From assembly GCF_030684315.1 (NCBI RefSeq), contig NC_081356.1, positions 80,832,835 to 80,896,834 of the forward strand: 64,000 bases of DNA, written 5' to 3'. The notes under the pieces were generated by a model. That model worked only from the letters and a program-made list of their open reading frames with translations, was not told the origin of the DNA and ran no database searches. This document shows, one piece after another, positions 14,101 through 61,632 of this stretch. Both the position numbers and the translations under genes were made by a program. The stretch is from Stegostoma tigrinum. Taxonomy: Eukaryota. How positions within the stretch are numbered: the stretch's first letter is position 1; each line of letters begins with the position of its first letter.

Positions 14101-17100
14101 CAAAAGTCATGGATTCGATGCAAAGCATCTTTTTTTGGGTCGCGAATGTAAACTTGAATTACTGTGTAAATAACTTGTGTTCTTATGTCCACCTCTAGTT
14201 TGCATGGCAGAAATATTTTACCTGTGATTTTCAATGAAGTGGTTGTACTCTGAGCTCGGGTTGATTTGCTCAATGGTATTGAGGACATCTTTGTGGATAT
14301 TTATTATGTCTTCTGTCACAAGGCTGGTTATTTTTACATATTCTTCAAGAATTCCTTTTCTATAATGGAATGTGAAAATAAAAATGTATGTCAAAATATT
14401 ACCAGGAACATTATTGCCTACTCTTTCATTGATATTCAATTTTACCACTTCTGGTTGTAAATATCGTTGGAGGAAAATTTAATGACCACTTTACTCATAG
14501 TGATCTTTGTCCATACCTTTATGTTCCAAGGCCTCGTACCATATCATAAGATAGTGATAATAGCTAAAAGGTCTGTCTAAGACAGATAATCTGGTAATTT
14601 TTGTTTTATATGTGAAACCTTTCCATATGCAACCAAGCTGCTACATTTGCAACTGTACAATAAGACATATCCTGGAAGAACCAAGACCATGAAAAATGCT
14701 ACGTAAACGCATTGCATCTTTTTCCACAGATGAAATTTGATAAAGCCTGTGATTTTTCAACATTTTTCACAGAAGTTGAAATTGGCAATGTGGAAAATGA
14801 AATACAATCCAAATTCGTTTACTTTTAAAGCTATTGAAATTTCTAAGCTTTTGCAAAGACTTTTTTCACAATCATTTCCGATAACAATGAAAAGTAATTT
14901 TCCCCAATGTAGGCTTATTAATTAAACATGTTGTTCTAAGATATACATCTCAGAACTAATTTTTCTTTTATGTAATAAGGCAAACTCAAATTAAGCATTT
15001 TCTTGAACACAAAATTATGGTCAATGTTAGTACTACAATCCAAATTAAATGGCATGTAAAAAAATACACAATGTGTCAGTGGGCACCAAAACCTTGAGGA
15101 AAAATGCCTTTTAGTGTGAATTTTTCTTTGTCCATACAAATATAGCTCCTTCTCTATGAAAAGGTGTCTAATTCCAAAGGGAAAGTACACAAATTTTCAC
15201 TAAATGCATCTGTTAATCCAGCAGCGCAACATGGATTGCTGCAGATCCAAATGGAGGGCATAGGCAAGTTGCCCCTACACAAGAGAAAATCAACTATCAC
15301 TAAAATGAAGATGATCCTATTTAGGCAAACATGCATGCACAATATAACAGAATTTATAAATAAAGAACAAATTGAAATACCGACCCAAACATTTATATTA
15401 AACGAGGAAAATAAAAATGTGTTCCCCTATCATATCACAAACCTAATACATAATGCTTTTAAGATTTTCAACAGTAACTCTAAACACGTCACCTTCTGTA
15501 AATGAAAATCTCAAAGCAAAGTACGAAAAAGAATATTAAATACTAGACATAGATATTCGTTTTTACAAATGTAAACACTACTTCAAAGACAGTCACATAT
15601 AGAAGCCATACACAATGAACATTGTAAATCAAGGAAAGGAAAGTAAGAAAAAGATGTCAATATGTGAAGCAATTCTTCGATGAGCTGGTCTAAGAATGAA
15701 CTAACTTTTAGCCAAGGATATTCTTGATGATGCAGGAGTGTGTATTTTGGGTGATTCAATCCATTTGTAAATTAGATTTGCTTTGTCACTTGTTGGCCAT
15801 CAATGGTTTATGCTGAAATTTATTGTGGGTCTGACTACACAGGATTGGAAGCAATAACTGAAACAATAAAAAGCAAAAGGAATAAGTTTCCTGGGCCGTT
15901 TTCAGGTTTGAGCTTACAGTGTGCTAAGTCATGTTCATACCACATCTGTGCCAGGAAATGACATAAGAATGTGATAATTAGAACCTGAAATAAGCAATTC
16001 AGAGCCTTAGAAATAATGGGAACTGCAGATGCTGGGGAATCCAAGATAACAAAGTGTGAAGCTGGATGAACACAGCAGGCCAAGCAGCATCTCAGGAGCA
16101 CAAAAGCTGACGTTTCGGGCCCAGACCCTTCATCAGAGAGCTCTCTGATGAAGGGTCTGGGCCCGAAACGTCAGCCTTTGTGCTCCTGAGATGCTGCTTG
16201 GCCTGCTCTGTTCATCCAGCTTCACACTTTGTTAATTCAGAGCTAGCGAGTTTTGAGAAGATTTGTAGCTCAGGTTCAGGTTCAGGATGTGAGTTTGCTC
16301 GCTGAGCTGGAAGGTTAGTTTTCAGACATTTCGTCACTATTCTAGGTAACATCATCAGTGAACCTCCAATGAAGCGCTGGTGTTATGTCCCACTTTCTAT
16401 TTATCTGTTTAGGTTTCCATGGGTTGGTGATGTCATTTCCTGCATTGGTGATGTCATTTCCTGCATTGGTGATGTCATTTCCTGTTCTTTTTCTCAGGAG
16501 GATGGTAGATTGGCTCCAAATCAATGGCTGATCTTATTGTCATTATTATTTTCCAATCCCTTACTTAGTTGCACTTTGAATCTATTTGGTCAAATCAAGA
16601 ATCTACCCATTTTTGATTTTAAAATATTTAAAGACCATGCATCCGCCACTCGCAGTGGAAGAGTTTCAGAGACGCTCAACTGTCAGAGAAAAAAAAACTC
16701 ATCTGGCTTAAGTGGGAGATTCCATATTTTGAACTCATTCTAAATTCATCCACAATGCAAAACATTCTTTCATTACCTAGTTTGTCAAATATCCTCAGAG
16801 CCTTACATATTTTAATATTTTGAAACCCAGTGGTTACAATAATTTTGTTAAAATACCCCTATATCATAGGAATCAGTCAAACGGAACATTCTCTGCTCTT
16901 CTCGCAGCACAATTAACTCCTTTATTAAATAACAGAACAAGAACTGTTCAGAGTACTCCAGATGTTATCTCAAAAATGGCCTGTCTATATATAGCAAAAC
17001 ATCCTAAATTTTATATTCAATTTTCCGTGCATTAAAACTTACCATTCAGTTGCCTTCATAATCATTTGCTTCACCTATAATTTTGACATTTTACGATTCA

Positions 17101-32100: not shown

Positions 32101-35100
32101 TATAGACCAGACAGTCTTACTTCTGTGGTGAACAAATGATTGGACGAGATTCAGAATGAGAGCATTTTTGATTATTTGGAAAAGGTATCGTCAGCATGGC
32201 TTTGAGGGGGGCAGGTCACGCCTTACAAGCCTTATTGAATTCTTTGAGGGGATGACAAAATACATTGATGAAGGTCAAGCAGTGGATGCGGTGTATATAG
32301 GTTTTAGCAAGGCATTTGATAAGGTTCCCCATGGAAGGCTCATTCAGAAAGTGAGGAGGCATGAGACTCAGGGAAATTTGGCTGTCTGGATACAGAATTG
32401 TCTGTCCAATAGAAGAAAGAGGGTGGTAGTAGATGGAAAGTATTCAGCCTGGAGTTCGGTGACTGGTGGTGTTCCGCAGGGATCTGTTCTGGGAGCCCTG
32501 TTCTTTGTGATCTTTATAAATGACTTGGATGAGAAAGTGGAAGGGTGGACTACTAAGTTTGTCGACGACACCAAGGTTGGTGGAGTGGTGAATAGCATGG
32601 TGGGTTGTTGTGGGTTGCAGCGGGACACTGATAGGATGCAGAGCTGGGCAAAGAAGTGGCAGATGGAATTCAACCTGGAAAAGTGTGAAGTGATTTATTT
32701 TGGAAGGTCGAATTGGAATGCTGAATATAGGGTAAATGGAGGATTCTTGACAGTGTGGAGGAAGAGAGAGATCTTGGGGTCCATGTCCACAGAGCCCTCA
32801 AAAGTTGCTACCCAAGTTGATAGGGTTGTTAAGGCATATGGTGTATTGGCTTTCATTGGCAGTTGGATATAAAAGCCGTGAGGTTATACTGCAGGTCTAT
32901 AAAACTCTGGTTAGACCACAGTTGGAATATTGAGTTCTGGTCACCTCAATGTAGTAAGTATGTGGAAGCTTTAGAGAAGTTGCAGAGGAGATTTACCACG
33001 ATGCTGCCTGGAGTGGAAGGCAGGTTTTATGAAGAAAGGTTGAGGTAGCTAGGGCTTTTCTCTTTGGGGCAAAAGAAGGATGAGAGGAGCCTTGATAGAG
33101 GTATACAAGATGATGAGAGGCATAGACAGAGTGGATATCCAGAGACTTTTTCCCAGGGCAGAAATGACTATTATTAGGGGGCATAATTTTAAAGGTTTTT
33201 AGAGGAAGGTATAGGGAGATGTCGGAGGTAGGTTCTTTACACACAAAGTGGTGGGTGCGTGGCATGTTCTGCCAGTAGTGGTAGTGGAGTCAGATACATT
33301 AAAGGATATTTAAGAGACCCTTGGAGAGGCACATGGATGATTGCATAATGTAGGGTATGCAGAGTAGTTAGATCTTAAGAGTAGGATAATAGGTCAGCAC
33401 AACATTGTAGGCTGAAGGGCCTGTACTGTGCTGTTCCATGTTCACTGTTTTATGTTCTAAAAGATGAGCAGACATTTCTTGAGAAACTCAGCCAATCTAG
33501 CAGCATCTGTGGCAAGAAAGACCAAGCCAACATTTTGAGTCAAGCAGCCCTCTGTCAGAACCAAAAACGATGACAAGGTGTGGAGAACTGGGAGCACAAG
33601 GAAGAGAGGGGTTAAAAAGGATCCGGGGTGCCAAGAGAGAAACAGAAAAGCAGGAAACAGTCAAAGGGATTACCCATAGCAAATCTAGGAGTAAATAAAC
33701 ACTGCGTAGTCGCTAACAGGTACTGTGATGAGTTGAAAATGAGTTAACTGTGCTGGAAGCAAACAAAATCCTTGTCTTGTGGTCTGAACTTGACTTAAAA
33801 AGTTTTATGTAGAGATTCTCAGACAATTGACTTTTGGAAGTCAACATCCTAACAGGTTTGCCAGCATGCACTTTAAATGAAAGTATCAAAAGGGAAAGAA
33901 ACTTGAAATTACCAGAAAAAATAAACTAAAAGAATGTTGGGGATTCCATTTGCTTGCAATTAATTTTGGCAGGTGCTGCAGCTGGGAGGAATTTGACCCC
34001 GTGTACAAACCACTGAGATACAGAACTGGAAGTAATACCAACCACCTCAGCAAACCAACGCATGTAAATAACAAGCGGACAAAACACCAATGCTTCACCA
34101 GAGCCACACTCTGATATATTACCTAGCAGGGTGACAAAATGTTTGCAACTAAACCCACTGGCTTAGCGAGCATTTCTACAAATACTTTAAATATTTACGG
34201 GCACAACACCCTCAAAATGGCCCACAGATGGGAAACAAATGCCATCCAGGTGAGCATGACCCACAAACAACTGTACTTCCCGCACAAATGCCTCAGAAAG
34301 CAGGGACTAGCACAAAGCTTAAAGCATAAACCACCTGCCAACAATCCACAGGACAGCTGAACAGAATGGCTGCAGAATGATAAGGGTTATGATCAACAAT
34401 GCCCACAACTGCCTCCACAATTATGAACGTGAAATTGTGCACCAAAAAAAAAATGCTGTACCCCAATGCAACCAACCAGGAACGGATATCCACACTGGAA
34501 CAAGCCATCAGCATACAAAAACAAAAAGACCAGAACAAAGAAAACAATAGCCCTTCAAGAAAAACGGTTCAAAAAAAAAATCACCCACACCAACGACACA
34601 GATTCATAGATTAAAAACATCTCGGACCAACCACTTACAGACACGGAGAAAACTCCTGGTATATGGACTGAGTTGTAACTACAGAGAAGCTAAACAGACC
34701 AAATTCCTGGTTGCGCTGGAATTGACACCAAAGAACAGTAGGCTCATAGAAGAAGTACAACAGACGACAATCCCAACAATGAGCAGTGAGCAAGAAAAAA
34801 GGAAACTGGAGCACATTCAACAGAAATAAAAAAGAGGAAAGCTCTGGAAAGACTCAAGACAGACAGGAACATTGTAATCTTACCAGACGCATGACAGTAA
34901 TCCTCAATACATCAAGAAAGCTAATGTCACAACTAGCAAATACCGACATCAACGGACCCAACAGCACAGGTAGGGAAATGGATTACAACGACCCTAAAGA
35001 AATTACACAACTCAGGAGACATCAGTAAGACAGACTACCAAAAAAATGAAGCCAGGGAATCTAACACACCCTGACGCCACAGGCTCCCTAGGGTACACGA

Positions 35101-38100
35101 ATGGGTGTGTGTGCGCGCGCGCGCGCGTCTCAGACCCACTAGCTCACCACCAGGCACACCAACATATATAGACTGGCCGAAAAACTACAACAGGGACTGA
35201 AGTATTCAGTGGGCAGCACTACCCATTCCATCCACTCATCATCATCATCATCAAGGACACCAGGATAGAAGAGGACAAGATGATGCTATTCTTCAACATA
35301 ACAGCACTATTTACATCCATAAACAATCGACCTAGCCAAATACAATTGCCACACTGCTGGACAAATCAAGTAGGCAGGCAACCCAGGACACCAACATCAG
35401 TAAGGACACTTGCACGAAACTCCTACGTCACAACTTCACCTCACAACCCACTTCACCTTCAACAACAGCATACATAAATAAATCAACGGAACATCAATGG
35501 GATCCTCAATATCAGGGCTGGTTGCAGAAGCAGTAATACAAAGATTAGAATGCACAGCACTCCCCAATGCACAACCCAAAAACTTTGGGTCCGGTAGGTA
35601 GAAGACACCTTTTTGTGATTATTAAAATGTGCAAAACTAAAGGAAATCCACTGACACAAACAATACCGTTACTGGGATAAAATTCATGCAAGAAGTAGGG
35701 AACAACAAGTGAGTACCCTTCCTGGGCACAAATGGTAGAATGCAAAAACAACAGGAAAACTCCAGACTAGCATAGATAGAAAGACCACGTATATGGACTA
35801 GATACTCAATTATACTAACAACCACCCCAACACCCACAAATGGAACTGCATCAGGACACTACTTAAGCGAGCCACAACACATACAGCAACCAGGAACAAT
35901 GCAATAGCAGAATAGGTACGGAGTCTTCAAAAGGAATGGATAGCCAAAAAGCACGATCCACCGTTACCTCAGAGGCAGTCCTCAACAGGAAGACACAACA
36001 CAACCAAACTTGCTAATCACCCAAATACACATTAAGGACATTTCAGATATGACCACAAAGCCATTCAGACACCTAAGTATCAAAAGTAGCCCACATGTCA
36101 ACAAACACCTTATGATAGCTACTGATGAACGTAAAGGATCCTGTACAAAACTAGCAAAACCAGTGTAACATACAAAATACGATGCAAGCACCATGAGAAA
36201 CACTACATAGGCCAAAGCAGGAGAAAACTGACAACACAGATACACGAACACCAAGAGACACAGCCAATTCTGACCTGTCTCACTACATATGAACAACAAG
36301 GTACACAAATTTGCTTAGCAAGCAAAAATTTATCTAGCCTGCCTTAAACACATTCAGTGAGGTAGCTTCAACTGCTTCACTGGGCAGGGAATTCCACAGA
36401 TTCACAACCCTTTGGGTGCAGCAGTTCCTCCTCACCTCAGTCCTACGTCTACTTCCCTCTATTTTGAGGTGATGCCTTCTAGTCCTAGTTTCACCTGCTA
36501 GCGGAAACAACCTCCCTGCCTCCACTTTATCTATTCCCTTCGAAATCTTGTAAAGATCCCCCCCCCTCATTCTTCTGAATTCCAATGCGTATAATCCCAA
36601 TCTACTCAGTCTCTCCTCATAATCCAACCCTCTCAACTCTGGAATCAACCGAGTGAATCTCCTCCGCACCCCCTCCAGTGCTAGTATATCTCTTCAAGTA
36701 AGGAGACCACAACTGCATATAGTACTCCAGGTGTGGCCTCATCAGGACCCTATACTGCTGCACCATAGCCTCCCTGGTGTTTAAACTCCTTGAGCAATGG
36801 CAGACAAAATTCTATTTGCCTTTTTTAATTACCTGCTGCACCTACAATCCTACTTTTAGCGATTCATGCACAAGGACACCCAAGTCCCCCTGTACAGCAG
36901 CGTGCTGCAGTTTTTTACCATTTAAAACATAGTCCATGTTGCTGTTATTCCTACGAAAATGGATGACCTCACGCTTATCAACATTATACTCCATCTGCCA
37001 GACCTTTGCCCACTCATTTAGACTACCTATATCCCTCTGCAGACTGTGTCTTCTGCTCACTTTGCTCTACCACTCACCTTAGTGTCATCTGCAAATTTTG
37101 ACACACCACATTTAGTCCCCAACTCCAAATCATCTATGTAAATTGTAAACAAATTTTTGATCACCACACTGAAAAAAAGGGTGGTGAAGTGCTCCTTGAA
37201 GGGGTACAAAATAGTTCCAGAAATGAGGAAACATAGCTGCAAAACATTTGCTTGTAGAAACAAAGGATTGTATTCATTGGAGCAAAAGAGCTGGAAGGAA
37301 GGGAGCTCCGATTGAGGTATACAGATTTAGGTAGTTATCAAGAGAAAAGCTGTCAACATGAGCTCAAAGGACTACAAGTCAAATTTCATGCTTTGGGCAA
37401 AGATTGGTTGCAGTAAGTGGTAATTACTTCAAATATGCTGGCCACAACCACATGACCACATGACCACAAACTTGCAGAACTATGGGCATACCGTGAAGAA
37501 ATGGCACTGACTAACTTGCACTATTGGGATCTGACACAGCCTTGATTGACTTCCGTCCGTGCTATACTGACTACATGACCGAAAAGAACAACAGTATGCA
37601 TTTACATAACACAAAACAAGCAAAAACTAAGAACAGGTCAAAATTGGCAAAGTATACATCAGCTTGCTATAATGCTGGAAACCTGTGCACAGGAGGCAGC
37701 CATCATTAGTATCTCTTCATTCACATTCAAGTACTATTTCTCAGCATCATTCCAAACAAAAGCAATGAAAGATTAATTCTTAACATGCTAAGAGCAGGCT
37801 ATTACAGATTCAATGCTGCAATTGGTTCCACCAGAACCACTTGGTTTTAGGACTCATTGCAGACTTGATCCAGGTAAGGATTCGACAAGTGAATACTATA
37901 AGCAGCATTGGAATGGACAAGACAAGACTGGCATTAAAAAATAAGAACACAAAGAAACCAACTTAAAATTTCGTAGGGGGTCAAAAGAGGACTACAAAGA
38001 AACTTCAGAAAAGATTTATTACATAGATGCTAGAATGGCTCTGTATAGTTTTCTCAAAAATCAAAGTCAATCCCAGATGACTTGACAGAGCAGTCAAGCT

Positions 38101-41354: not shown

Positions 41355-44300
41355 ATTGACTAAGGCACCAAAATACCCACAGTGCTAAATGCAAATTCAC
41401 CACTTAACGCTCAAAACATGACCCTTGTTCTGAAAAATAAATAAGACAGTAAAAGATATTATGCAGATTCTGTAACATAAAACATGTCAAGATCAAGTAG
41501 GTGTCAACAATCTTATTCTATCATTTCTCAAACCTTTGAAACTCGTGCACCTCTACGTGGATGAGTTTGTCCCAAAATATGTACAACAAATAAATCATTG
41601 GAAATTCTTAAAATGATACTGTCCTAAAAACAATGTTTCATGCAATGTTCCACTCCTATTTCCCCGAGCATCCTTGGATGTATCGCATTCAGCCCCAATA
41701 TTTCTTCAATTATAGTTGGCTCATCGAAGACCCACTCCTCGTCAATTTCAATTTGGTCTGATTTATCTCCTTTCACGATAACTTGCGCAGCATCTTCTTT
41801 AATCAAGACAGATGTAAAGTATTCATTTAATACCTGGACCATGTTCTTGTTGCCATGCACAAAATCTCCTGTACCATCTCTTATCTCCCTGATGGCTGTT
41901 TTGTTTTCTGACAGTTATGTATCATGATAAAGCAAAAAGTGTATTAAAATAATATACTGTTTAAATTGTGGTCAACACAAGCCTCTAAAATTACACCATG
42001 CCTTTAGTTGTGGCTACATGACACCGGTTATGAATTACTGTCAGGTCCCATGCTAACATAAAATCAATGTTGGAGGCTCACTTTAACATTTGAAGTAAAA
42101 TAGCTTTACTTTAAGGCACAACTGCTTCTTAGATTGGTTTGGCTTTTCAACTTAAGAAGTGTTCTAAAGGGAAATAGCCATTTTCCTGGAATTGAAACAA
42201 TGTTATTTTGGCTTTTCACATGCATTAGCTAAATTTATTATGCTGCATCTTTAATACATATGTTGTTAATTCAGTTTTATGCATGTGCGCTGCATGGATT
42301 TTGTGACAGCATAACTTATACTTTTGTTACTTTTAGTTAATTTGTTCCAGGAAACAGTCACTGTTAAGTCAGTGTCAAATGGCTTATTTCACAAAAACAT
42401 ACTGTCAGACTTTTGAATTAACCAGAACACTTCAAATGTATCACTTAGCTATTGGAATGATATTAATCATTAGAACATGACACCACATATGCTTAAAGCA
42501 ATCACACAAAATTACCTTGCACACAAAATTAGTTGACAGCTCTTTACAAAAAAAAAGGAAAAGCTACATTGAATACTGTGTTCCTACAAATGACTGATAT
42601 TTGGGGAACTGGTCAGCAGAGAACAGGAAGTGATATCATAAAGATGACTACCATTTTGTAACTAGACAAAAAAAATGGCACTTATCCATCAACAAATCTG
42701 AGATTAATATGTGCTGTTTGCATGTTGGCAAGCCAATCAGAGCTCAGGATTTTGACTAGCACACAGGTTCTACAAACAACCAGTAAGAGAAGATAAGAAA
42801 AGCAAAAGAACAAAACAGGAGACAAGTGACCAGTCAGGGAGAAGTCACTAGCTGGTGTCCCAGACTAGATCAACTGAATTCACTGTCTTATTAAGCATTA
42901 TTCTTTATGATTTACTCAGCAACTTTATGAAACTTGTGAAAACATACATGTATTATTAACCAGCCAGGACCGAAAGGCCTTTAAGAACTTGGTTCATAAT
43001 TATATTGACTTAAGCCTTACAACTAAAATTAAACAATATAGGCCTTGCAATCCTTTTACTATTTCTATGCCAAACCATGACTTTCTGATTCCTTTGTCAA
43101 TCTCTTCGCAAACCATTTTTTTGCTTTTCCACTTCCTCACTAAACCTTCTATATTCAGCCCAGTACTTAGTACACTAGATCTGACAGTCATGGACTTGTA
43201 CGGTCCAACTCACCCATGCCAACTAGGTATCCTAAATTAATTCTGACATCTGTTAGAAGCACACTTGTTTTTTGGTCTCTCGCTCTTTCATTGGGCAGGG
43301 GACTTGCACACTAACTTCTTTCTTGACCGTTTGGCAGCCACTCATTCCCACTCTTCCAGCGTACTCTTAAGCTACAAGAGGATCATGCCTATAAACATGC
43401 TATCCTTGAAGTTCTCAACTTCATGCAAGCACCACACTGATGCCACCTGCTGCAATGTGCAATGCCGACTATAAATATGGTTATCTAGACTTTCCACATA
43501 GCACAGGAAGTGCATTCCAGAAGTCAAAGCAGTCCAGTCATTCCTCTATTTAGTACATTGTTTCTACTAACACAACTCAAAAAATACTATTAGACCTCAC
43601 TACACTAAGAGTTCTCATTGTTCACGTCCTCTGTTCATATAAATTAAACATTGGGAAGCTAACTGAAAATTTTATATAAATATTTAATGTTTTTAATCTC
43701 TCAGTTGCTTCCCAACTCATTACCTAACTTTGGAAAAAGGGAAAACAACAAAACAAAAGCAATATTCATCAAAACCAATAAACTCTCAGCTTTCCTCCAC
43801 CAAACCCAGAGACTTGGAATGCTGCTAAACTGAAATAGAATTGTGGATGCTGGAATTTTGAAACAAAAAAAAGGAAATTACAACAGGTCTGGTAGCATCC
43901 ACACAGCACTGTACTTGAAATGTTAACTGAGTTTTCTCTCCACAGATACTGCTGGGCTGCCAAGTTTCTCCAGAAATTTGCATTTCGGAATGCTGCTAAA
44001 CCAGAATCTGTCAAGGTGAGACAGTAATACGTCACACTTCTAGCCCTCAGTTCCTCTCTTCCCTGGTATTCCTGATATTTTTCAAGGTCTACTCGTGTTA
44101 CTCCCATACTCTCTCCAGTTATTTTGAAAGTAGTTTAACTCAAGGCTTTCTTGTGATGTCACAGTTGGCATTCACTCTCTTACTTGTGACCCTAACCAAC
44201 ATCATCCCCCTCAAAGTCTCTGCATGGGAAACCTAACCTGCTTCATGCTCAAAGACTCAGAGCATTCAAGAAACTCAGCATGGCCTGTCAAGTGAAACAG

Positions 44301-46859
44301 GTTTTGAGTTCAATATGAAGTCACGTTGGACACAAAACATGAACACCGTTGCTCTATGTCAAGGTGTTGCCAGATGTGTACAGATTCTGCAGCACTTTGT
44401 TTTTATTTCAAAGCTCCAGAACCCACAGTATTTTTGTTGTTATTTCAGTCATCCTTAAAAATGAAGATATCACATCTGTGGTTGGATTTCCATTGAAAAA
44501 TTTTAATGAAGTTCCTATGATTAGAGATCCAAAACATCTGACATAATTGCAGATTTTTAAAACAAACCACATACCAAAATTCTTGAAAAAAATTTTACAA
44601 CATTTCAGAAGTTAAATTCTTGAGGATCCTTCCCACCATTAAAGTAATTCAATATTTTAAAGCATGTTCAAATATACTTGCTGCTTACATTTGTGATGTA
44701 ACTGAATTTTACCACGCTCGGGCCAATTCCTATTTTAATATGTCAAGACCTGAATCCAAGGAAATGTTATCCATATTCAGCAGTAAAACAATGTATATAA
44801 TTTGACAAATCTCACAAATGGGATTAAATAGGATCAGGATATCCACAGAAAATGCAGAATCAGTTTTGTTGCAGTGCAGAAAATGGCCATACTCCATGTT
44901 TTATTGATCATGTTTTCTAACTGTCTTACAAGCTTTAATGATTTGTTGACATATAGACCAAGTGTCTGTACTCCTGCTCATCCTTTAGAATAATGTTTAT
45001 TTTAGTTTATACTGTCTCATCACATGCATTTCACCAAAATCTCTTACATTGCTCTACAAGGAATTTCATCTTCCACCTATCCGTCCAATCCAATCTGTGG
45101 CATTTTGAAGATCCATGCTTTTCTCCTCAAATTTACAATTCTTTCATATTTTCTATCATCTCCAAACTTGAAAACTTTCTCCTGTAATGCATGGTCAAAG
45201 TCACTTGTATAAATCAGGAAAAGGGTCCACTACAAACTTTCCGCTGCTTGCAAAATACCTATTTTCCATGACTGTTTCCTATCACTCAGTCAATTTTGTT
45301 CAGATTATGACTATCCATTTAACTTCATAAGCCATAACTTTTCTCAAGTGTGTTCTGCAGCTTTGTATCAAATGTCCTTTGGAAGACAATGTACAGATAT
45401 TGATAGCACAACTTTTATCAACTCTGTCTGTTACTTCTTCAAAAGAACTCAAACAAGTTAGTTAAACATGATCCAAAAATTTGTGACAATTATATTTTCC
45501 CATTTCTCAATCACGTGGTCATAGCAGAACACAAAGAAGGGCCAGAAACTGCATGCAATCAAAACTTGGTTCATAAACCTAATTCATTTTTTTAAAAACA
45601 TATCACATACACAAATACGGCAAAAAATTCTCATTCAAATTCCCGTTAGTAGTGAAAGGAGGTAAATTAATCTACTTTGATAATACTAGCTGAGGTGGAA
45701 GTATTGACTCAAATAGTAATTCAGCATTCTCCATTAAATACAGCCAAGTTCATTTCAGCAAACGTGCCACCTTTGTGGGTCTTTCAAAAGACCACAACTT
45801 CCAAAAATACAAATTCTCCCTCAAGAGGAGATTGCCATTTATTTCTGAGTTCCAATTACATGGACCACCAATACAGCCCAAGCGAAATTGCAGGGCCTTG
45901 ATGAACTTGAAGGCAATACGTTTTTAAAAAGTTTATAATTTTTCTTCTTATGCAACAGCATTGTAAAGGAACGATAACGTGAACAAATCTATTTTTCTTA
46001 AATATGTCTTCAGCAGGCAAAAGTAAAAGTCAAAGTCAAAAGATTACAAGAGACTGCACATCAGTTCACTGTAATTTAGCAATTTAATTACAATGTTCTA
46101 ATACAACCCATGGCTCTGCAACATCGCACGATAAATCCTCTTAACCGACTTCACAGTTGCCATCTTAATTAGTTCCAACAGCAAAGTCTTCAATCATTAA
46201 CTTTCCAGGGGAACTTCTTCCAGATTCATAACAACTTGATAACTTTCGCAACTTCTTTCCACCCACCCTAAAGTTCCTGTCAGCCTTCTGTACTCCAGCT
46301 GAAGTTATTCCAAAGCCTCACCTCACTCAAAATGACAGTTCCATCTCTATTTCACTGCTGGATCTACACTGTACACTTGATGGCTTTAAAGCTCTTTCTG
46401 GAATGGGGTATTTAAAATTGCACAGTATACTCTACATAACACATACTACTGGCATTCAGAATAAATATTAAAGCCAGGCAGAAAAACTCAGTGTGCAAGC
46501 TAACCAAGAGGCTATCGTAAGGGATTGTGAGATTTTCTAGTAGTATGCAAGAAACCCTTATATTTTCCCCCTACAGATGTCTTTTTATTTGATCGTCCAT
46601 TTAAACTGGATTTTCTGCAAAAGAACATTCGAAATGGACATCTGATAAAAAAGGAACCTGCTGTTCATCTGAAGATCATTCAAGCTACTGATATTTTTCT
46701 GTTCATGTTTAACTGTCAGCTTTGAGTAAATAACTATTTCTCTAAAATTTGCAACAGTACTAGAAATATATCTCAGATTGGCAGCACCCAAGACCACCAA
46801 TCATGCAGAGAAATGTGTCACACAAGATTAGTAATAGGAAAATAAACAAAATATTTTCT

Positions 46860-47315
46860 GGATGTAAGTTTGCTCGCTGAGCTGGTAGGTTCGTTTTCAG
46901 ACGTTTCGTCACCATTCTAGGTGACATCATCAATGAGCCTCCGGTGAAGCGCTGGTGTTATGCCCCGCTTTCTGTTTATCTGTTAGGTTTCCTTGGGTTG
47001 GTGATGTCATTTCCCGTTCTTTTTCTCAGAAGCATGGCATTCCAACCGGAACTCCATCAAGCCCATGTGCTTGTTGATGGAGTTCCGGTTGGAATGCCAT
47101 GCTTCTGAGAAAAAGAACAGGAAATGACATCACCAACCCAAGGAAACCTAAACAGATAAATAGAAAGCGGGACATAACACCAGCGCTTCACCGGAGGCTC
47201 ACTGATGATGTCACCTAGAATGGTGACGAAACGTCTGAAAACTAACCTTCCAGCTCAGCGAGCAAACTCACATCCAGAACCTCAACCTGAGCTACAAATC
47301 TTCTCAAAACTCGCT
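46860..47315. mobile_element. Penelope-like family B terminal repeat as ~205-bp inverted repeat with 13-nt spacer and 12-bp TSD
   Basis: Arms ~46856-47060 and 47074-47279; TSD AAAATATTTTCT at 46848-46859 and 47316-47327. Confidence 0.9.
47198..47238 (+). ncRNA. Intact minimal type I hammerhead ribozyme motif
   Basis: tca-CTGATGA-T-GTCACC tagaat GGTGAC-GAAA-C-GTC-tga: full core, perfect 6-bp stem II, TCA/TGA stem I, GUC cleavage triplet ending 47235. Confidence 0.78.
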
Positions 47316-49182
47316 AAAATATTTTCTTTTCTTTGGAACATAAAGACCATAAGAAATAGGAACAGGAGTTAGTCGTTGGTCCCTTGTCAACACAGTGTGG
47401 AGCTGGAGGATCAGAACAGGCCAGGCAGCAGAGGAGCAGGAAAGTCAACGTTTCAGGTCAGGACCCTTCATCAGGAAGCAAGAAGGGAGCTGGGAATTAG
47501 AGGGAGGCGGGGCAGTAGGTGGGATGGTGACAGGTGGATGCAGGTAGGGAGCATGGTGATTGGCTGGTGGGAAGGGCAGGAGGAAGGCAGGCAGATTGTG
47601 TCAGGTCAACGAGGCAAGATAAAGGAGGGATGGGGCTGGGTGTGGGGAGGTGGGGTGGTGATAACTGAACGCAGGTAAGGGGTCGTAGGAATTGGTCAGT
47701 GAGAAGGGTGAGGCAGATAGGTGGGAAAGACAATGAACAGGGTGTGTCCGGTCAGGGAGACAGGGATGAGTGTGAGGGTTAGACTTGAGGTGAGGCCAGA
47801 GCTGGGGAGATTTTAAAACTGGTGAATTCTATGTTCAGGCCACTGGGCTGTAGGCTCCTGGGGCAGAATATGAGGTGTTGCTCCTCCAGTTTGCGTGTGG
47901 TGTCACTGCAGCATGGAAACAGCCCAGGATGGATACGTCATCATGGGAGTGGAAGGAGGAGTTAAAATGGTTAGCGACTGGCAGGCGTTGTTGATTACAG
48001 CGTACTAAGCACAGAGCTCCACACGCTGGTCCTCAAGACTGCGTCTGGTCTCACCGAAGTAGAGATAGCCATGTCGGGAACAATGGATACAGTAGATTAG
48101 GTTGGAGGATGTGCAGGTGAACCCCTGATAAATATGCAAAGTTTATTTTGGGCCTTGGAGGGAGGTAACAGGGGAAATGTAGGGGCAGGTGCAGCACTTC
48201 TCACGGTTGCAGGGAAAGATGCTAGGTGTGGTGGGGTTAGTGGAGAGTGTGGAGCAGACAAGGGAGTTGCAGAGAGCGCGGTCACTACGAAAAGCAGATA
48301 GGGGTGAGGAGGGAAATATCTTGGGTTGTGGGGTCAGAATGTAGGTGGCAGAAGTGGCAGAGGATGATACGCTGGATGCAGAGGTTGGTAGATGGTGTCT
48401 TTGTATTTGTTTTTGTTGGGGGGTGCAGAAAAGACTTGGAGTGCAGAAGTGTGGGAAATGCAATAGATGCTGTTGGAGGGCATTTTTGATTATCGGATTG
48501 GGGAAGCTGCAGCCCTTGAAACAGGAGGACATCTGGGATGTTCAGGAGTGGAATGCTCCCTCTTGGGACCAGATGCAGCGGAGGTAGAGGAATTGGAAGT
48601 ATGGGATTGCATTCTTGCAAGAGGGGGGCTGAGAGGAGTTATAGTCAAGGTAGCCCTGCGGTTGGGACTGAGTTATGCCTGTCTCTTCATAGGATACGTG
48701 GAAGAGTCCCTCTCCTGCTGTTACACCAGCACCATCCCTCACCTCTTTCTCTGCTACATTTATGACTGCATTGATGCTACCTTGTGCTCCTATGAGGAGC
48801 TTGAACAGTTCATCAACTTTACTAACACCTTTCACCCAACGTCAAATTCACTTGCACCATCTCATATCTCCCTCCCCTTCCTGGACCTCTCCGTCTCTGC
48901 ACGGACATTATTTCAAAACCACAAACTCCCATAGCTACCTTGACTACACTTCATCTCACCCACCCTTGTGCAAGAATGCAATCCCATACTCCCTATTCTT
49001 CCGTCTCCACTGCATCTGCTACCAAAATGCAGCATTCCAATCCCAGGCATCCCAGATGTCCTCCTATTACAAGAATCGCAGCTTCTCCTCTCCACTGATC
49101 AAAAATGACCTCAACCACATCTTCAGCATTTCCCACACTTCTGCCCTCAAATCCCCTCCCCTCAAAGACAAAGACAGAGGCC

Positions 49183-49315
49183 AAGGTAACAAGGTGCAGA
49201 GCTGGATGAACACAACAGGCAGGATGCTCCTCTGATGCTGCTGGCCTGTTGTGTTCATCCAGCTCTGCACCTTGTTATCTCAGATGCTCCAGCATCTGCA
49301 GTTCCTACTATCGAA
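49183..49315. mobile_element. Short Penelope terminal-repeat hairpin nested in the composite element
   Basis: taacaaggtgcagagctggatgaacacaacagg with perfect inverted copy; TSD-like AAAGACAGARGCC at 49170-49182 and 49316-49328. Confidence 0.8.
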
Positions 49316-49667
49316 AAAGACAGAAGCCCCCTGGTCATCACATACCTCCCCACCAACCTTCACAAGCAGCATCTCATCCTCTGCCACTTCTGCAACCTTC
49401 AGTCAGACCCCAAAGAGATATTTCCCTCAGCATCCCTATCTGCCTTTCACCCCTACCATCCCTCTGCAACTCCATCTGCTCCACACTGCCCACCACACCC
49501 CATACCTTTCCCTGTGACCACTGCTGGTGATATACTTGCCCCTACACCTCCCCTCTCACTCCATCCAAGGTCCTAAACAAACCTTCCAAATCCAACAGGG
49601 GATCTTCTGCACATCCTCCAACCTTGTCTAATGTATCTGTTCCTTCCCGATGTGCCCTCTTCTACAT

Positions 49668-49975
49668 CGGTGGCTCAGTGGTTAGCACTGCAGCCTCACA
49701 GCGCCAGGGACCCGGGTTCAATTCCAGCCTTGGGTGACTGTCTGTGTGGAGTGTGCACATTCTCCCTGCGTCTGCGTGGGTTTCCTCCCACAGTCCAAAG
49801 ATGTGCAGGCTAGGTGGATTGGCCATGCTAAATTGCCCATCGTGTTCAGGGGCGTGTGGGTTAAAGGGTGATGGGAATGGGTCTGGGTGAGATGCTTCAA
49901 AAGGATGGTATGGACTTGTTGGGCTGAAAGGGCCTGTTTCCACACTGTAGGAAATCTAATCTAATCTAAAAAAAC
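49668..49975 (+). mobile_element. HE1-type (V-SINE) elasmobranch SINE, near full length
   Basis: tRNA head ggtggctcagtggttagcactg...gggttcaattcc, core gtgtggagtgtgcacattctccc, gattggccatgctaaattgccc, CR1-like tail + (ATCTA)n. Confidence 0.88.
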
Positions 49976-52379
49976 TCCTGGAGCATCTGGACACGCAGTG
50001 CAACAAACAAACACCACTACCTTCCTGTTGCCAACCATTTTAACTCTCCTCCCAATCCCTGGGCAACATGTCGATCCTGGGCCTCTGCCAGTACCACAAT
50101 GACACCACATGCAAACTGGAGTAGCAAGACCTCATATTCTGCCTCAAGAGTCTACAGTCTAATGGCATGAACGTAGAATTCACTAGTTTTAAGATCTCCC
50201 CACCCCAGCTTCATCTCACATCCAACCCTCCTTCTCATCCCCACCTCCTCGACCTGACACAACCTGTCCATCTTCCTCCCCACCTATCCACCCAGACTTC
50301 CCACTGACCAATCCCTACTACCGCCTACCTGCATCCACCGATCACCATCCCACCTACCTTCCTCCAGCCTCACCCAAACTCCCTCTATTGATTTCCCAGC
50401 TCCCTTCCTTCTTCCCTTTTCCCAGTCCTGATGAAGGGTCCTGAGCTGAAACATCAGCTTTCCTGCTCTTTTGATGCTGCCTGACCTTCTGTATTCCTCC
50501 AGCCCCACGCTATGTTGACTGTAACTCCAGCAACTGTAGTTCTTGCTATCTTTGATCCCTTGAGCCTGCTCCACCATTCAACAGGATCACTACTGACTTC
50601 ACATTCCTCACAGCTATTTTCCTGCCTTTTCCCCATAAACCTTGAGATTGCTATCCGATTAAGAAGCTATCTCAGCCTTAGAAATACACAAGGACTTTGT
50701 CCCTCAGCTCTCTGTGGCAAGGAGTTCGAGAGGTACACAACCCTCAGAAATTCCTCCTCATCTCAGTCTTAAATTGGTGCCCCTGCTTCTAAAACAATGC
50801 CTTTTGGTCGTGGACTCTCAGCATTTACCTGTCATGTCTCTCAAGAATCATTTCAATGAGATCACACCTCATGCTTTCAAATTCTAATAAGTAGAATCCC
50901 AACCTGTTTAACTTTGGTTCATAAGACATGGTGCTATAACAGTGTAAATTGTAGTGAACTTTTTGGCACGGGTTATTTTAATGAATCTGCTTCTAAGTTT
51001 ATAATCATGTGACTGGCTGATATGACATTTCTTATACTTGATTAAGATTTCAGATTTGATTAACTAAATATTTGTATTAGCTGCTAAATTGATGTAAATA
51101 ACCATCAATTTATATATGCCACCAGAAGTGAGGAGGAAAGTCAAGAAACTTTCTTGCTGTCACAAGTTTGATGCAGCATTCAGTACTCTGCAATGGGGAG
51201 TGACTAAGACAAGGACCATTAAGTCAAATAAAAGGGAAACCTGGATGAATATATGAAGCTAAGCTACAGGCAAATATTTAATGTCATCGGAGACTAAAGA
51301 CTGAGTTCAGGAAGCCACATTTACAGGGAGAGGGACCTATCAATAAGGCTCAGCACAACAACGGAAAATGTCTCTAGGATATCAACTCTCACTTCCCTTC
51401 TCCACACAGCAGGATGAATGTCTTCACAGTTTATGTTTATTTTTTTTAAAAATAGTTATGTCACCCCTTTTGTGACCAGTGAATGTGCCAAAACACTTTA
51501 CAAATGAGGAAGTACTTTTGAAGAGTAACCACAATTGCAATGCTCAATGAATAAGGAATCATAGCCCATTTCAGGGCAGGGCTAAGTGCAGTGCTTAGAG
51601 TCCATTAGATTCCCATCACCATCCCCATACACCCACCCTCTCTGTTCAGTTTGAAACTTCTTGCACATTAATCAATGGAAGTGTGTGCTAATAACATGGC
51701 AGCAAGATAAATAGGTATCTAGGACCTTGGTGAATGATGAGGCTAACTTACTAACTCTTAGTGAGATTTACATACCCAGATAAAGAAAGGAAATAATGGA
51801 GAAAAAAAATTTAAAAAGTGAAAGAATGAATGAAAGAAACAAACATTGAAGTCAAATAACAATAAGAGATAAAGAGGAAAAAATAAAACTTTAAAATCCA
51901 CAAGGGAATAATTTCCAACCTTCGGGAATTGTGTCTTCACTGGTTTTAATTTTTCTATTTTTGAATCAATGTTAAGAGGTTTGCAGGAACACAAGTCAAA
52001 TTAAGTGGAAAAATGCGTAACATCAAGTACTATATCAGGTTTCTTACAGTAAATTTAATTTATTTCAAGAAGAAAATGCAGTAATTTCTCCAATCTCACA
52101 TGGAAGTGGATGGAAATATTCCATTGCATGAACCTTATGGTGGAAACACATGAATTAGCACCCAATTTGCTATGATTGCAACTGATATCATAGCTCTTCC
52201 TAAATTGCTGACTTTACACTTGAACAAAAGCTTGTAAATTGCAATTTTCATCATTTTCCCAATAAATTCTGGGCTGCCGTGATATTTTGAAAATTAGATA
52301 TGCCAATGGTTACATTTTGAATTTCGCAAGATTACACTTTCAAGATTATGAAGAAAGAATAAATTTTTATTCATAATGG

Positions 52380-56385: not shown

Positions 56386-56639
56386 TGAGATTTCAGCATT
56401 GACGTGTGTTGTCAACTTTGAATGAGCCCAACCACTTCAGACAGTGGAGTCAACCAGTCACGTTTTAGGAGGATAGAGGTTCAGATGATGGTCTTACTCT
56501 GGATGCGCTGAGGATGCAAGTATTGTTACCCTCTTGGACGTAATTACATTTTGCAATGGCCAGAATACGAACATGGGCTGCAAGTTCATCATCAAAAGGG
56601 GTTTGATGCTTTCAACAGGCTGATTCAACCTAAGACAAT

Positions 56640-57600: not shown

Positions 57601-58751
57601 ACTCCCCCAAAAAGTAACTTGTGATCTTTCATCTCCAACATGGTTTCTCACATCTACCACCTTGCCGTGCTGCACTCAAATCCCTAAGATATTTGTACAG
57701 ATAATATCAGTATACTAATTTGCTTAGTGGTCAGAGAGTAAACAAATTTACAAGTGGAGAAAAAAAAAAGGATGTCAAAAAACCATTATCAGGAGGAAAG
57801 TGAAATTGAACATGAGTATTTTCAGGGAGTTAAACAGTGCTCTGATAAAGGGAATGAAAAAAGACCTGGGAAAGGACATTAGAGATGACAGCATCAATCT
57901 GAGGCAGCGTAAAGGCATCAGTATTCAAGTGACATCTTCTGTGCTGTAATTTCCAATATTCTTACAGAAAGAACCCTAACCGTAATAATTAGATGCACAG
58001 CAACACAAGTTCTTGAAGTCTTCAAATCATTAACATGCTATTTGGAAAATTCACATTTTGGAATCACTGATCAAAGATAGTGAAGATATAAACATGTAGG
58101 ATGCAAATATTGGTTCATGTCTTGACAAAACAAATGTAAAATATGGCCACAAAAAGAAATAAAATATGCAAATCACAAGATAAACTTGCAAAAAGCATCC
58201 AACCAACATCAATCAGCATACCTATGTATATGAAAACATCGGTAGCTAGAATATTTCCCACATCAACCAAGCTAAAAATTTGTACAATGGCAAAAAGAAA
58301 TGGCAAATTCCCAATCGACAATCATATCCTAATAATCTCACCAATTTATGTTTCGTTTTCCACTTGCTAATAGAAAATAATCCTCAAATGACAGCAATAA
58401 AGCTTGTCAACATCTTCTATTCCTTCACAGCCTCCTGAACCCTATAACCTTGCTCAAATCTACAAACCCATATCAAAACCTGCAATTTTCAGACTCTGCC
58501 ATTTGTCCCTCCACAACTTCAATCACCCAGCATTGGTAATTGTTGCCATCCATAGAGGCCTCAGCTGGAATTCCCTCCTTTCACTATTCCCTCATAAATC
58601 CTGTCCCTTAGATCAAGCTTTTAAGCAAACCCTCCAAACAACTGGACTGAACAACCAAAGACTTGCAGATGCTGGAAATCAGAAAAGCAAACAAACAAAA
58701 ACTGCTCAAAAAACTCAGGCGGTCTGGTAGCATCTACGGAGAGAAAACAGA

Positions 58752-58787
58752 GTTAACATTTTCAGGCCAATGGCCTTTCTTCAGAAC
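58752..58787 (-). ncRNA. Hammerhead-like motif in an old Penelope terminal repeat (~58660-58790)
   Basis: Reverse complement gtt-CTGAAGA-A-AGGCC att GGCCT-GAAA-AT-GTT-aac. Confidence 0.45.
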
Positions 58788-59399
58788 TTCTGTTTTTGTT
58801 CCGTCCACTAACTTTTCTTTTGACACAACATCCACTCATTTACTTGTCTTGACGTGCTTTTTGTATGTTAAAAAGTCATACAAACAATTCTTTTGTTGCT
58901 ATAGAGAAAGTTTCAGTAATCCAAAAGTTGATGGAACAAAATACTTGCAGTGTAAGAACACAAAGAATGGTGAATAATTGGACAAGGACATGCTGATTTA
59001 TTTTACTAACCATTTCGAAGTGATCAATTCTATTCTTATTCCTTCATTTAATACAATCGTGCTGCATAGTTAAATTTATGAACAATTCAGTCAGCACAGC
59101 CAATGAGCCACAATAAAGGATGATAAGAACCACATCCATCGCATCCTCTGCATAATTCGTTTGTTATAATCAACAAGCAATTTTAAAATAAGAAACTATG
59201 GACAAAGCTGTCGTATTTTGGAAAAAATAAGCCGTATATGTATTAGTTTCTGTACTTTCGCATGTTCTTTCAAGTTTGTACAAAACTGACATTTCAGTCT
59301 CGCGTACTTCAACTGAGGGAGGTGGTAATGTTTTGGCTCGAAATTCCTACCTTTTCTTTACAATTTGAATCTGCAACAATTCCAAGGTATTATACCTAA

Positions 59400-60545
59400 C
59401 CTACTATAAAATACTCTATTGAAGACCTATCGGCAAAGTAAATGCGACTACTCGTAAAGCTCGATTAAATCGTAAAAAAATCGATAACATATCATTAAGA
59501 CTTATTAAAAATCGACAAAAGCACGATGCAACCAACGTTTTCACGGTTACAAAAACAATGCACAATATATTGACTAACTTGTAAACAACAAACACAATTA
59601 CGATATTAAATAAGGGGAGATTTTATCTTAAAAAAAACTGATGCACTTCGCAAAATTGGCACCTGCTTACACGTCTTCAAGAAAATCAGCTGTACGACTA
59701 ATCTAAGATTCTCCACTGCATCGAAACAATGTTAGAAAAGGCAGACGTGAAGTTGTGGGATGTTACGACGGATAAAGAAACAACAATCACTAACTGTCAG
59801 CCAAATAACTGAGGTACCGAAGCACAACCCAGGACTGACAGGATGGGCCAGGCAGTAGACAGACAGTTATCATTATACGGTCCCTGATCACCGTTACGTT
59901 GGCTCACTGGCGGTCGGCGCGCCAGGATCGCCCCGCTGGAATGAGGACTGAGAGGGCGATCCCTCGGGCTGATCAGCCGGGCTGGTTTGTCGTCCGCGTA
60001 ATGAGCAAGGTTTGCCTACCTCATCAATAACTGAGCCAGGGAGAGAAATTGCACTCCGGGATCACTGACTAACCGGTGTTGTGACCCCGAGCCGGAAACA
60101 TTGACCAATCTTTCACCTGGGACACTTTTTAACTTTCAACACTCCCTCGTCGAAAGCTGCCGTTCCCAAGCAGCAGTACGCAGGCGCGGCATTCACAAAG
60201 GCTGCTGGGAGATGACGGCTAGGGTTCCAGCTGGACCTCTTGTACGGAGCATGCGCTACTTCACCAGTGCCGACGAACGCCTGAGCGTGAAAACTGCTGG
60301 GTTGTAGACGTTCTAGGTCAGGTGTCTCCATCACGAGCAATTTTATTCAATCTTTTGGAAGACATCAACGTAATTGAAGCTGCTGTTTTTAAAAATGAAA
60401 GACAAAAAAGTGACGGGTAACACTCCCAAGGTTTACTGCGTTGGAGCTGTGCCACTCCCAGGAGTTGATATCGTGGGAGTGAGTGTGCATTGCGTTTGCG
60501 TTACGCATGCGTGTTAAGATGTCAGACATTCATGACGTCAGAGAA
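59400..60545. promoter_or_regulatory. CpG-rich, repeat-free region: probable FER promoter / CpG island
   Basis: Many CpGs (e.g. cggtcggcgcgcc, gtacgcaggcgcgg) against a CpG-depleted window. Contains a perfect CRE TGACGTCA (60533-60540), an NRF1-like palindrome ACGCATGCGT (60503-60512) and ETS-like CCGGAA. Lies upstream of the FER ATG on the minus strand. Confidence 0.75.
60020..60300 (-). other. Candidate non-coding exon 1 of FER (5' end uncertain)
   Basis: Minus-strand donor GAG|GTAGGC at 60020/60019 inside the CpG island; the first coding exon has a splice acceptor, so an upstream exon is required. Confidence 0.5.
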
Positions 60546-60564
60546 CGAGGACAAGTTTAGCCTC

Positions 60565-60651
60565 GATAACAAAGTGTGAAGCTGGATGAACACAGCAGGC
60601 CAAGCAGCATCTCAGGAGCACAAAAGCTGACGTTTTAGGCCTAGATCCTTC
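60565..60651 (-). mobile_element. Penelope family A terminal-repeat fragment abutting the promoter
   Basis: Nearly identical to 16045-16130. Confidence 0.85.
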
Positions 60652-60784: not shown

Positions 60785-61632
60785 AGTAGAATGATGTGGA
60801 GATGCTGGTGTTGGACTGGGGTGGATAAAGTCAAAAATCACATGATTAAGATACAAATTCCAGATCTCTTTCAAGTCACTGCCCTGAGATAATTAAAGAT
60901 TTCATCAGTGTCTGCCTAACTGCCCAAACTTCAAACAGACAGTGATAAGATATACAAAAGGCGACATCTCAGGTCAGACACTGAATTATAGGTGTGAGGG
61001 CTTGTCAGAGTCTAACTGAAGACTTTTCACTTGGAATCAGGTTGGTTTTGTTCCAAAGGCAGGAATTTATAAAATGCCACACTGACTGACTGTGATTACA
61101 AATGTTTTTTGAACAAAATGGAATGTATCTGAAAATTAGCAAACATCTTGGATGAAATTATTCACCCCATAGGTTTGCATGTGTATGTGCGTGTGTGTGC
61201 ACACAAGCATGTGTAATTCAGTGTCTGAGCTGAGATGTCACCTATTGTATATTCTTACCATTCTGCCTGTTTAAAGTTTGGAAAGTTAGGCAGACACTGA
61301 TGGAGCCTTTAATTATCTTGAAACAGAATTCTGGAATTTGAATCTGAATCAATTGACACTAACAGATTTCTCCACATCCTGCTTATGCAATTTCTAGAAT
61401 GCAGGAATGTATGAATGATTAAAGATTCAACAGGAGGCAGTCAGTCAGCCAATTTAGGTTTGCTCACTCCACTCACACCTTGTAAGTGTAGTATGATCCT
61501 TTGATCTCTCTGCCTATAACCTCTGTGTTTGTGTGCTCTCCTGCCTCTGCATCTGATGAAGTGGTGCTCTGAAAGCTTGTGATTTCAAATAAACCTGTTG
61601 GACTGTAACCTGGTGTCATGTGATTGTTGACT
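60785..61632. mobile_element. Third Penelope-like family remnant with internal inverted repeat (60850-60990 vs 61215-61347) and degenerate hammerhead core (61553-61580)
   Basis: gtggagatgctggtgttggactggggtgg terminus; CTGATGAAG..GAAAGCTT followed by aataaacctgttggactgtaacctggtgt. Confidence 0.65.

Follow-up and report, generated by a model that had tools for sequence, protein, structure and literature searches.

Minimal hammerhead ribozyme sequences of Penelope-like elements in and around FER of the shark Stegostoma tigrinum

We have analysed the hammerhead ribozyme motifs in a 64,000-nucleotide stretch of the Stegostoma tigrinum genome (contig NC_081356.1, positions 80,832,835 to 80,896,834; the whole stretch is called the window), which carries the beginning of the gene FER on its minus strand. 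With high confidence we consider that these motifs are minimal hammerhead sequences located in the ends of Penelope-like elements (PLEs) of four groups, and that the copies in the FER introns are likely dead ends, which would seldom or never cut the pre-mRNA.

Hammerhead cores and the elements that carry them

The original prediction had listed hammerhead cores dispersed inside and upstream of FER, and every one of them was located at its place in the window sequence. The C3 positions are as follows.

Plus strand: 16145, 47202, 50428
Minus strand: 16136, 16358, 46933 (C3 changed to U), 47474, 58784
Remnant cores, plus strand: 34111, 61553

Five of the eight main cores passed a strict descriptor (CUGANGA, a stem II of at least 4 bp, GAAA, paired 15.2/16.2 and UH); one of them, 47474, has a G-U at the 10.1-11.1 pair. 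The other three are decayed copies: 46933 carries the C3U change; 50428 combines an A in place of G16.2 with a G-G mismatch in stem II; in 58784 an additional A stands behind GAAA and an A-U replaces G10.1-C11.1. When the window was resampled locally 100 times with a Markov model, strict matches averaged 0.02 with a maximum of 1. The surrounding 464 kb gave 32 strict matches versus 0-1 in each of 10 controls, and 1.064 Mb gave 64, of which 60 have an unpaired base between 9 and 10.1, as called by our script. Because five strict cores were found against 0.02 expected, the window motifs are genuine minimal type I hammerhead sequences and not chance matches, and the observation is confirmed. A looser descriptor does reach five matches in resampled windows, and one of the 64 strict matches seems to have no kinship with any family and is apparently fortuitous; however, each named site sits within a repeat family, as judged by clustering and family mapping, and a single 30-mer of the motif has 90,316 exact genome copies versus none for the reversed pattern, so that chance has a negligible probability as the source of these motifs. 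An Rfam scan of the window returned 17 weak matches at E<=10, none of them to a hammerhead model.

Clustering of 800 relaxed motif candidates from 1.364 Mb placed 240 of them in 8 clusters. The motif was present in five clusters with 231 candidates, namely A1 (103), A2 (60), D (42), B (20) and E (6), and these make four groups: A, D, which is related to A, B, and E, which consists of remnants and includes the remnant at 61553. The claim that at least three Penelope-like families with minimal type I hammerheads are represented is thus borne out. The genome search proposed together with that claim was made with exact patterns over the 3.2-Gb genome. In addition to the 90,316 copies of the 30-mer, which belongs to A1, a family B pattern with one degenerate place had 7,038 copies and a degenerate family D pattern had 3,368, with zero copies for both controls. 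Families A, B and D together amount to about 100,000 copies, mainly from young family A.

Three of six fetched A1 loci (L262, L263 and L266) consist of a hammerhead ribozyme, an open frame of 1,087-1,108 codons and a second hammerhead ribozyme; such units were obtained for family A only. The best described unit is the following.

L262:1591-5257: complete unit with a hammerhead ribozyme, a 1103-codon open frame and a second hammerhead ribozyme 3,666 bp later

The L262 protein matches RVT_1 (E 2e-5 at 580-730) and GIY-YIG (E 0.004 at 963-1002), with a CX4CxxC linker between the reverse transcriptase (RT) and the endonuclease (EN). Both matches fall below the curated Pfam cut-offs, which speaks against the assignment. 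In family B, GIY-YIG lies upstream of the ribozyme and the linker is absent; a DNA search with the 83-bp piece upstream of family B gave no match, a result that carries no weight. The CX2-5CxxC linker marks Neptune and Nematis and is absent in Penelope/Poseidon (PMC8557442; here and below, statements from the literature refer to the passages covered of each source). Family A may accordingly be named Neptune-type and family B Poseidon-type, clade names that come from the linker motif alone and with Nematis also having the linker. The first ATG of family A stands behind a terminal tail, and in family B the open reading frame (ORF) crosses the CUGAUGA box and reaches its stop codon in loop II (L017:971-1576; L024:1968-2585). 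The cores are thus minimal hammerheads in the terminal repeats of RT and GIY-YIG Penelope-like elements. Family A appears very recent, because 40 of 40 scored matches to its ORF start are 99-100% identical.

The stems differ among the families, and the core consensus CUGANGA ... GAAA ... UH is kept in A1, A2, B and D, with G10.1-C11.1 in the family consensuses. The stem III palindrome is ACGU in A, B and D, and AGCU in E. Three stem II types that keep their pairing had been proposed, which overstates the covariation, since it relies in part on decayed copies. The GTCACC type is a minor variant of family B (1 of 100), whose stem II reads GTTACC in 99 of the first 100 exact matches, and AGGCC/GGCCT is a single decayed copy of family D, which itself reads GGGTC/GACCC. 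The proposed check of stem II covariation gave a divided result. Among 29 B-type copies, harvested with a pattern that included stem II and excluded stem I, one stem II pair is U-G in 13, U-A in 11 and C-G in 4; in stem I, 13 of the copies have G-C and 11 have U-A at one pair. The covariation score of 0.248 was reached by 1 of 500 shuffles, although kinship among the sequences inflates it; pairs with changes on both sides, at 3, did not exceed the 3.7 of the shuffled sets, a point against our reading. The second stem I pair is C-G, U-G and U-A across A1, A2 and D, and genuine family-level covariation is clearest in stem I. In 56 long young copies the core is no more mutated than the flanks, and the changes fall mainly at CpGs.

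Anatomy and ends of the insertions

The named cores belong to the following insertions, in which the clade names are putative.

16013..16237: head-to-head insertion of family A (Neptune-type); the tailed arm runs 16140->16013 (minus), the tailless one 16141->16237 (plus)
16109..16136, minus: intact family-A core, FER-sense, intron 5; stem I of 2 bp, stem II of 4 bp, ACGU, GUC
16145..16172, plus: intact family-A core, antisense to FER
16244..16540, minus: family B (Poseidon-type) solo 3' end with tail; core 16358->16325, AUGU in stem III
34065..36254, plus: old Poseidon-type copy, intron 3; broken core 34111-34143, then ORF remnants
46856..47316: family B head-to-head insertion, intron 1; tailless arm (minus) with core 46933->46900 (C3U), tailed arm (plus) with intact core 47202-47235
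47382..50530: older family-A (A2) inverted insertion, intron 1; cores 47474->47447 (minus, GUU) and 50428-50455 (plus, broken)
58670..58788, minus: family D solo copy, intron 1, starting at -3; core 58784, extra A after GAAA
61553..61640, plus: remnant of family E with an AGCU palindrome and a broken stem II, upstream of FER

The arms of the insertion at 16013..16237 are 94 bp long and 98% complementary, each starts at -3 from C3, and the pair is flanked by the target-site repeat AATTCAGAGC at 15996-16005 and 16234-16243; the family-B copy at 16244..16540 was inserted in the right one of these repeats. The old copy at 34065..36254 includes a GIY-YIG-region match at 36083-36254. Remnants of the RT thumb, the linker and GIY-YIG are found on both arms of the insertion at 47382..50530, with a tblastn match of E 4e-61 at 48658-47800 (minus) and more matches at 48909-50280 (plus). 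A short interspersed repeat lies within this A2 element at 49669-49950, with a second copy at 63378-63452; it appears to resemble the shark HE1 short interspersed nuclear element (SINE).

Further head-to-head pairs of A type were noticed at 6375-6529 and 49181-49311, with truncations that lie within the ribozyme or beyond it. They give weak, sub-threshold Rfam matches to microRNA precursors, and hairpins of A-type pairs could serve as editing or Dicer substrates. Two additional decayed family-D copies lie at 33460-33561 (minus) and 43907-43980 (plus).

The layout of the pair at 16013..16237 is common. Among 281 A-type arms surveyed in 1.364 Mb, 132 make 66 head-to-head pairs, and in 64 of the 66 one arm carries a 34-nt tail and the other does not. 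A target-site repeat of 10-17 bp flanks 30 of 44 young pairs, and the arms are length-matched in 43 of the 44 (29 short-short, 14 long-long). The two arms agree at diagnostic sites above chance (21 of 27 versus 0.34 expected; 26 of 30 versus 0.61), the palindrome centres vary from copy to copy, and partial tandems were seen among A-type loci. These A-type insertions match the known layout of EN-containing (EN+) PLEs, with an inverted 5'-truncated copy, a one-sided tail, a target-site duplication and partial tandems. Two apparent peculiarities were rejected: the stem I of 6 bp seen at L084, a family-A copy, arose at a single junction, with five other loci of the same flanking motif running into the ORF, and a C/T difference between the arms of family-B pairs was due to the query picking a rare variant.

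These features would fit a copying reaction in which the element's protein nicks both target strands, complementary DNA (cDNA) is begun on a single kind of RNA from its two tail start sites, and the two cDNAs would then be joined at their far ends to give a head-to-head pair. Alternatively, the short palindromes would be a self-propagating family, similar to a miniature inverted-repeat transposable element (MITE) or a SINE, with its own master copy and not made anew at each insertion. Such a family could explain why a 200-bp palindrome gave long matches in 40 of 40 scored candidates and why short arms show some diagnostic variants (TTC, TCC) more often than long arms do. But the palindrome centres differ among copies, the tail makes the ends asymmetric in 64 of 66 pairs, the layout recurs in long pairs that carry ORF remnants, and the target-site repeats measure 10-17 bp; the fixed internal sequence and symmetric ends of a MITE or DNA transposon were not found in A-type pairs. 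We regard this alternative as highly improbable. Short tailed RNA from solo copies may also be mobilised in trans.

The 5' ends of the copies are concentrated at the ribozyme. Among 152 young arms, 59 ended at -8..+9 from C3, whereas the interval -26..-9 held 2 ends and +10..+27 held 6; Fisher tests gave p 7e-11 and 7e-17, although paired arms are not independent. An independent anchored alignment, from which 46 A2 arms of 232 were dropped, gave 66, 4 and 9 of 186 ends in the same intervals, and in family D the edge and comparison tally was 25 versus 1 of 47, including one or two A cross-hits. Genome-wide, the exact count drops from 90,316 to 69,040 at -3 and 58,634 at -5. At the cut site (+29) there were just 5 of 186 ends, which come from three insertions whose junctions are self-complementary overlaps of AGCT or GAGC. 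A cleavage footprint was considered in the 22 of 186 ends at +28..+45 versus 9 at +10..+27, yet it was rejected, with 10 ends in the 11 nt of +46..+56. Because short copies end at the ribozyme 5' edge and not at the cut site, the template RNA kept the whole ribozyme and was uncut there, which suggests that uncut RNA is the template of copying.

The boundary fits TCA+1GTY in family D and, in family A, YC+1TYTYY; +1 falls at -3 from C3, and these are published initiator (Inr) consensuses (PMC5580651). This resemblance suggests that RNA may start there, and an internal promoter in the pseudo-long terminal repeat (pLTR) of Drosophila would be a precedent (PMC2377424). We tentatively entertain a fuller reading, somewhat less probable than its alternatives taken together: Neptune-type RNA would start with the ribozyme's first bases (the Inr-like sequence TCAGTT in D and the TCT-like CCTCTCT in A, each of which places +1 four bases before C3), the tens of thousands of short copies would be strong-stop cDNAs from uncut RNA, partial tandems would arise through a retrovirus-like jump to the 3' repeat, and the hammerhead would double as the start-site region without making the template's 5' end. 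This RNA start is weakened by the spread of the boundary over about 17 nt and by the ease with which such short motifs match. Also, in a survey of 30 loci, 21 of the 23 ORF-bearing ones that keep the upstream ribozyme continue past the boundary, so that a jump between templates would be required. The rival explanation of the boundary is that the polymerase pauses at the C-rich tract.

The copies in the FER transcript

FER lies on the minus strand, with its start codon at 41354 and its last exon 127 kb left of the window. The exons found in the window are the following.

60020..60266, minus: FER non-coding exon 1, 5' end approximate, over a CpG island
41142..41429, minus: FER exon 2, with the start codon at 41354
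40834-40655, 31209-31105, 30542-30357, 14358-14221, 13198-13079, 8955-8827 and 5183-4995, minus: further FER coding exons

Over the first coding exon, identity to the FER of Rhincodon and Chiloscyllium is 97%, and the exons are open and 81-100% identical to white-shark FER. Position 41429 is joined to 60020 by two contigs from related organisms (runs X4 and X9, whose kind we guessed as RNA), GT and AG are present at these junction places in the window genome, and a CpG island spans 59751-60250. Contigs of this kind, drawn from four runs in all, bear on the exon join and not on cleavage ends, strand or level. Because exon 1 lies at about 60020-60266, the copies from 46897 to 58787 are in FER intron 1 and not upstream of the gene. 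The predicted placement inside FER therefore holds, and its upstream part applies to the remnant at 61553 alone: all other named copies are intronic, with the cluster at 16 kb in intron 5. We also noticed a tailless family-A arm truncated at +6 at 60561-60651 (minus), which borders the promoter CpG island and lies some 300 bp upstream of exon 1.

As predicted, several copies are FER-sense, and we counted five (16136, 16358, 46933, 47474 and 58784). It was further proposed that the pre-mRNA thereby carries potential self-cleavage sites; actual cutting there is unlikely. Three of the five are masked in predicted folds: the stem II probability is 0 for 16136 in a 188-nt hairpin of -191.9 kcal/mol and for 46933 in a hairpin of -402.7 kcal/mol, and the core of 47474 is fully paired when both arms are cofolded (-400.5 kcal/mol). 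By its geometry, a head-to-head pair has its antisense arm transcribed first on either strand, and in a host transcript this first-made arm would zip up the ribozyme of the pair. Besides being masked, 46933 has a changed core, as does 58784. The remaining copy, 16358, is the sole unmasked FER-sense copy with an intact core; it has AUGU in stem III and is without a usable dimer partner nearby. The only FER-sense family-B partner in the window is 46933, which is 30.6 kb off and carries C3U. A mixed A:B dimer of 16136 and 16358, which are 222 nt apart, was considered and rejected, as stem I is unable to form. Solo copies would lack a partner and would decay at their two CpGs.

Published results point in the same direction. 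Minimal PLE hammerheads showed no activity as monomers and low activity as dimers (PMC4209133; Cervera and De la Pena 2014), and the ribozyme of PAc, a Poseidon element of Anolis, needs the element's protein, with no RNA-seq reads ending at its cut site (Frangieh et al. 2024, PMC11167929). From this literature, cutting as a protein-assisted dimer would be expected of the ribozyme within tandem RNA of the element itself. Slow intronic ribozymes leave splicing unaffected, whereas fast ones reduce it (PMC10919898, the former citing Fong 2009).

Several points weigh against FER copies being inert. The core of 16358 is intact and its stem II is formable (predicted probability 0.52-0.78), and 58784 has a predicted hammerhead-like fold (stem II probability about 1.0) in spite of the additional A. 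Given the young age and intact frames of family A, its protein may be present in cells and could aid cleavage. Equilibrium folding leaves out kinetics and RNA-binding proteins, and the strand tally given below, with 10 cores, is small and would miss a mild bias.

In a rival reading, solo FER-sense cores (16358 and one at window -28376) would be latent cutters: a partner transcript or the protein of the element would activate them in trans, and they would cut the FER pre-mRNA upon element expression. The dependence of PAc on its protein, the intact young family-A frames, the lowered splicing with fast intronic ribozymes and the unmasked predicted fold of 16358 would all speak for such activation (PMC11167929, PMC10919898). 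However, in the 188-kb FER unit the strict cores number 4 sense and 6 antisense and the solo A-type arms 7 and 8, with no strand bias of the 10 cores found; thus, sense cores are not depleted, and the cores show no excess damage. Additionally, A and B are unable to make a mixed stem I, the slow ribozymes known to spare splicing offer a precedent for no effect (PMC10919898, citing Fong 2009), and folding of modelled fragments puts the double hammerhead well away from the optimum (-21.1 versus -39.8 kcal/mol for B, -5.5 versus -43.0 kcal/mol for A, in a model that excludes non-canonical core contacts). We consider activation in trans very unlikely, and we give equally little weight to cleavage of the FER pre-mRNA at these copies by any route.

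Whether family A is catalytic at all is a separate question, and its motif could be a degenerate, non-catalytic relic kept for another role, such as a promoter or a protein-binding site, which concerns catalysis only and is compatible with a PLE origin. Stem I of just 2 bp would agree with a relic, as would a monomer predicted to fold CUGAUG onto CGUCAG and so block the core, and 5' ends that accumulate at the edge of the motif and not at its cut site. Yet A1, A2, D and B retain every core position, together with the bulge, G10.1-C11.1 and the ACGU palindrome, stem I shifts from C-G to U-G and U-A across A1, A2 and D, and a 2-bp helix I is known from D. virilis (PMC4209133). A relic is therefore unlikely in our view, though clearly less so than the latent cutters.

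The FER copies differ from domesticated intronic ribozymes, as they are recent repeats without strand bias that are mostly masked (predicted) or broken. Amniote HH9 and HH10 are domesticated intronic ribozymes. A sense orientation with a foldable ribozyme in the pre-mRNA was not found as a rule in FER, with 4 sense versus 6 antisense cores and three of the five named sense copies masked (predicted).

Other features of the locus were also noticed. LINE reverse-transcriptase remnants, which we take to be of CR1 type, lie at 32132-32872 and other places. A GA/GC-rich satellite of about 12 kb, with a period of 20-22 and a CpG observed/expected ratio of about 1.75, lies in a FER intron (L073:3619-10000 into L074; window -76,400 to -64,300), and a second large CpG island lies about 140 kb upstream of FER exon 1 (L094; window 200,500-204,000 equivalent), possibly the promoter of the next gene.

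Known systems and the role of the ribozymes

The closest known motifs are the minimal hammerheads of metazoan PLE pLTRs (PMC4209133). They share the core boxes, one unpaired base after A9, G10.1-C11.1, a palindromic 15.2-16.2 without loop 3 and a short helix I, as well as dispersed truncated copies in number and close opposite-strand pairs. The helix I of only 2 bp in family A is unlike these minimal hammerheads in general. About 9,000 motifs were reported for Xenopus and 4,000 for the coelacanth, versus 90,316 of one 30-mer here, counts obtained with differing descriptors. No shark is named in the text and supplements covered of that study, whereas the host here is a carpet shark. Our literature search on shark PLE hammerheads found no paper, and the passages covered of PMC6155905 concern the shark's head shape only, although the supplements of a bioRxiv preprint (10.64898/2026.07.22.740005) and of PMC4209133 may list shark motifs.

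EN+ PLE insertions, including those of Adineta, share head-to-head arms, a 30-40-bp tail on one arm, target-site duplications and partial tandems (PMC8557442, PMC3846280). Within them, the linker in family A is as in Neptune-type elements and its absence in B as in Penelope/Poseidon-type ones (PMC8557442). A pile-up of 5' ends at the ribozyme edge was not found in the passages covered of these two papers, and here it is quantified, together with the one-sided tails in 64 of 66 and the matched lengths in 43 of 44 pairs. PAc shows a likeness in its two reverse-transcription start sites bounding the tail, about 90-125 nt past the ribozyme, in the extension of both target strands, and in uncut RNA as the main template, as observed in vitro (PMC11167929). 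Its ORF starts in stem II, in contrast to the first ATG after the tail in family A and the ORF stop in loop II in family B.

Non-LTR retrozymes are alike in their type I dimer-dependent hammerheads, very high copy number and PLE link (PMC7229834; bioRxiv 10.64898/2026.07.22.740005); the axolotl has 126,247 retrozyme motifs, and the preprint includes one chondrichthyan. Retrozymes are head-to-tail arrays of non-coding units with canonical helices, whereas the copies here are dispersed or are the head-to-head ends of protein-coding elements (PMC7229834). No head-to-tail retrozyme-type array was found among the repeats listed for the window, where the copies are dispersed or inverted and joined to ORF remnants. 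The CPEB3 ribozyme shares a location in a pre-mRNA intron, but ribozymes of its type are single, conserved and active as monomers (PMC10919898).

In summary, the motif is of a known kind, and the FER copies are probably neutral, with no new regulatory mechanism. Cutting of host pre-mRNA by intronic copies, were the element's protein to enable it, would make PLE activity costly across the genome, but nothing here indicates so. The role of PLE ribozymes has been called "still unclear" (PMC8557442), and one shark genome with about 100,000 pattern-perfect minimal hammerheads and intact frames is good material for studying it. The ends of its copies record the copying reaction, with two start sites, matched arms and a stop at the ribozyme 5' edge.

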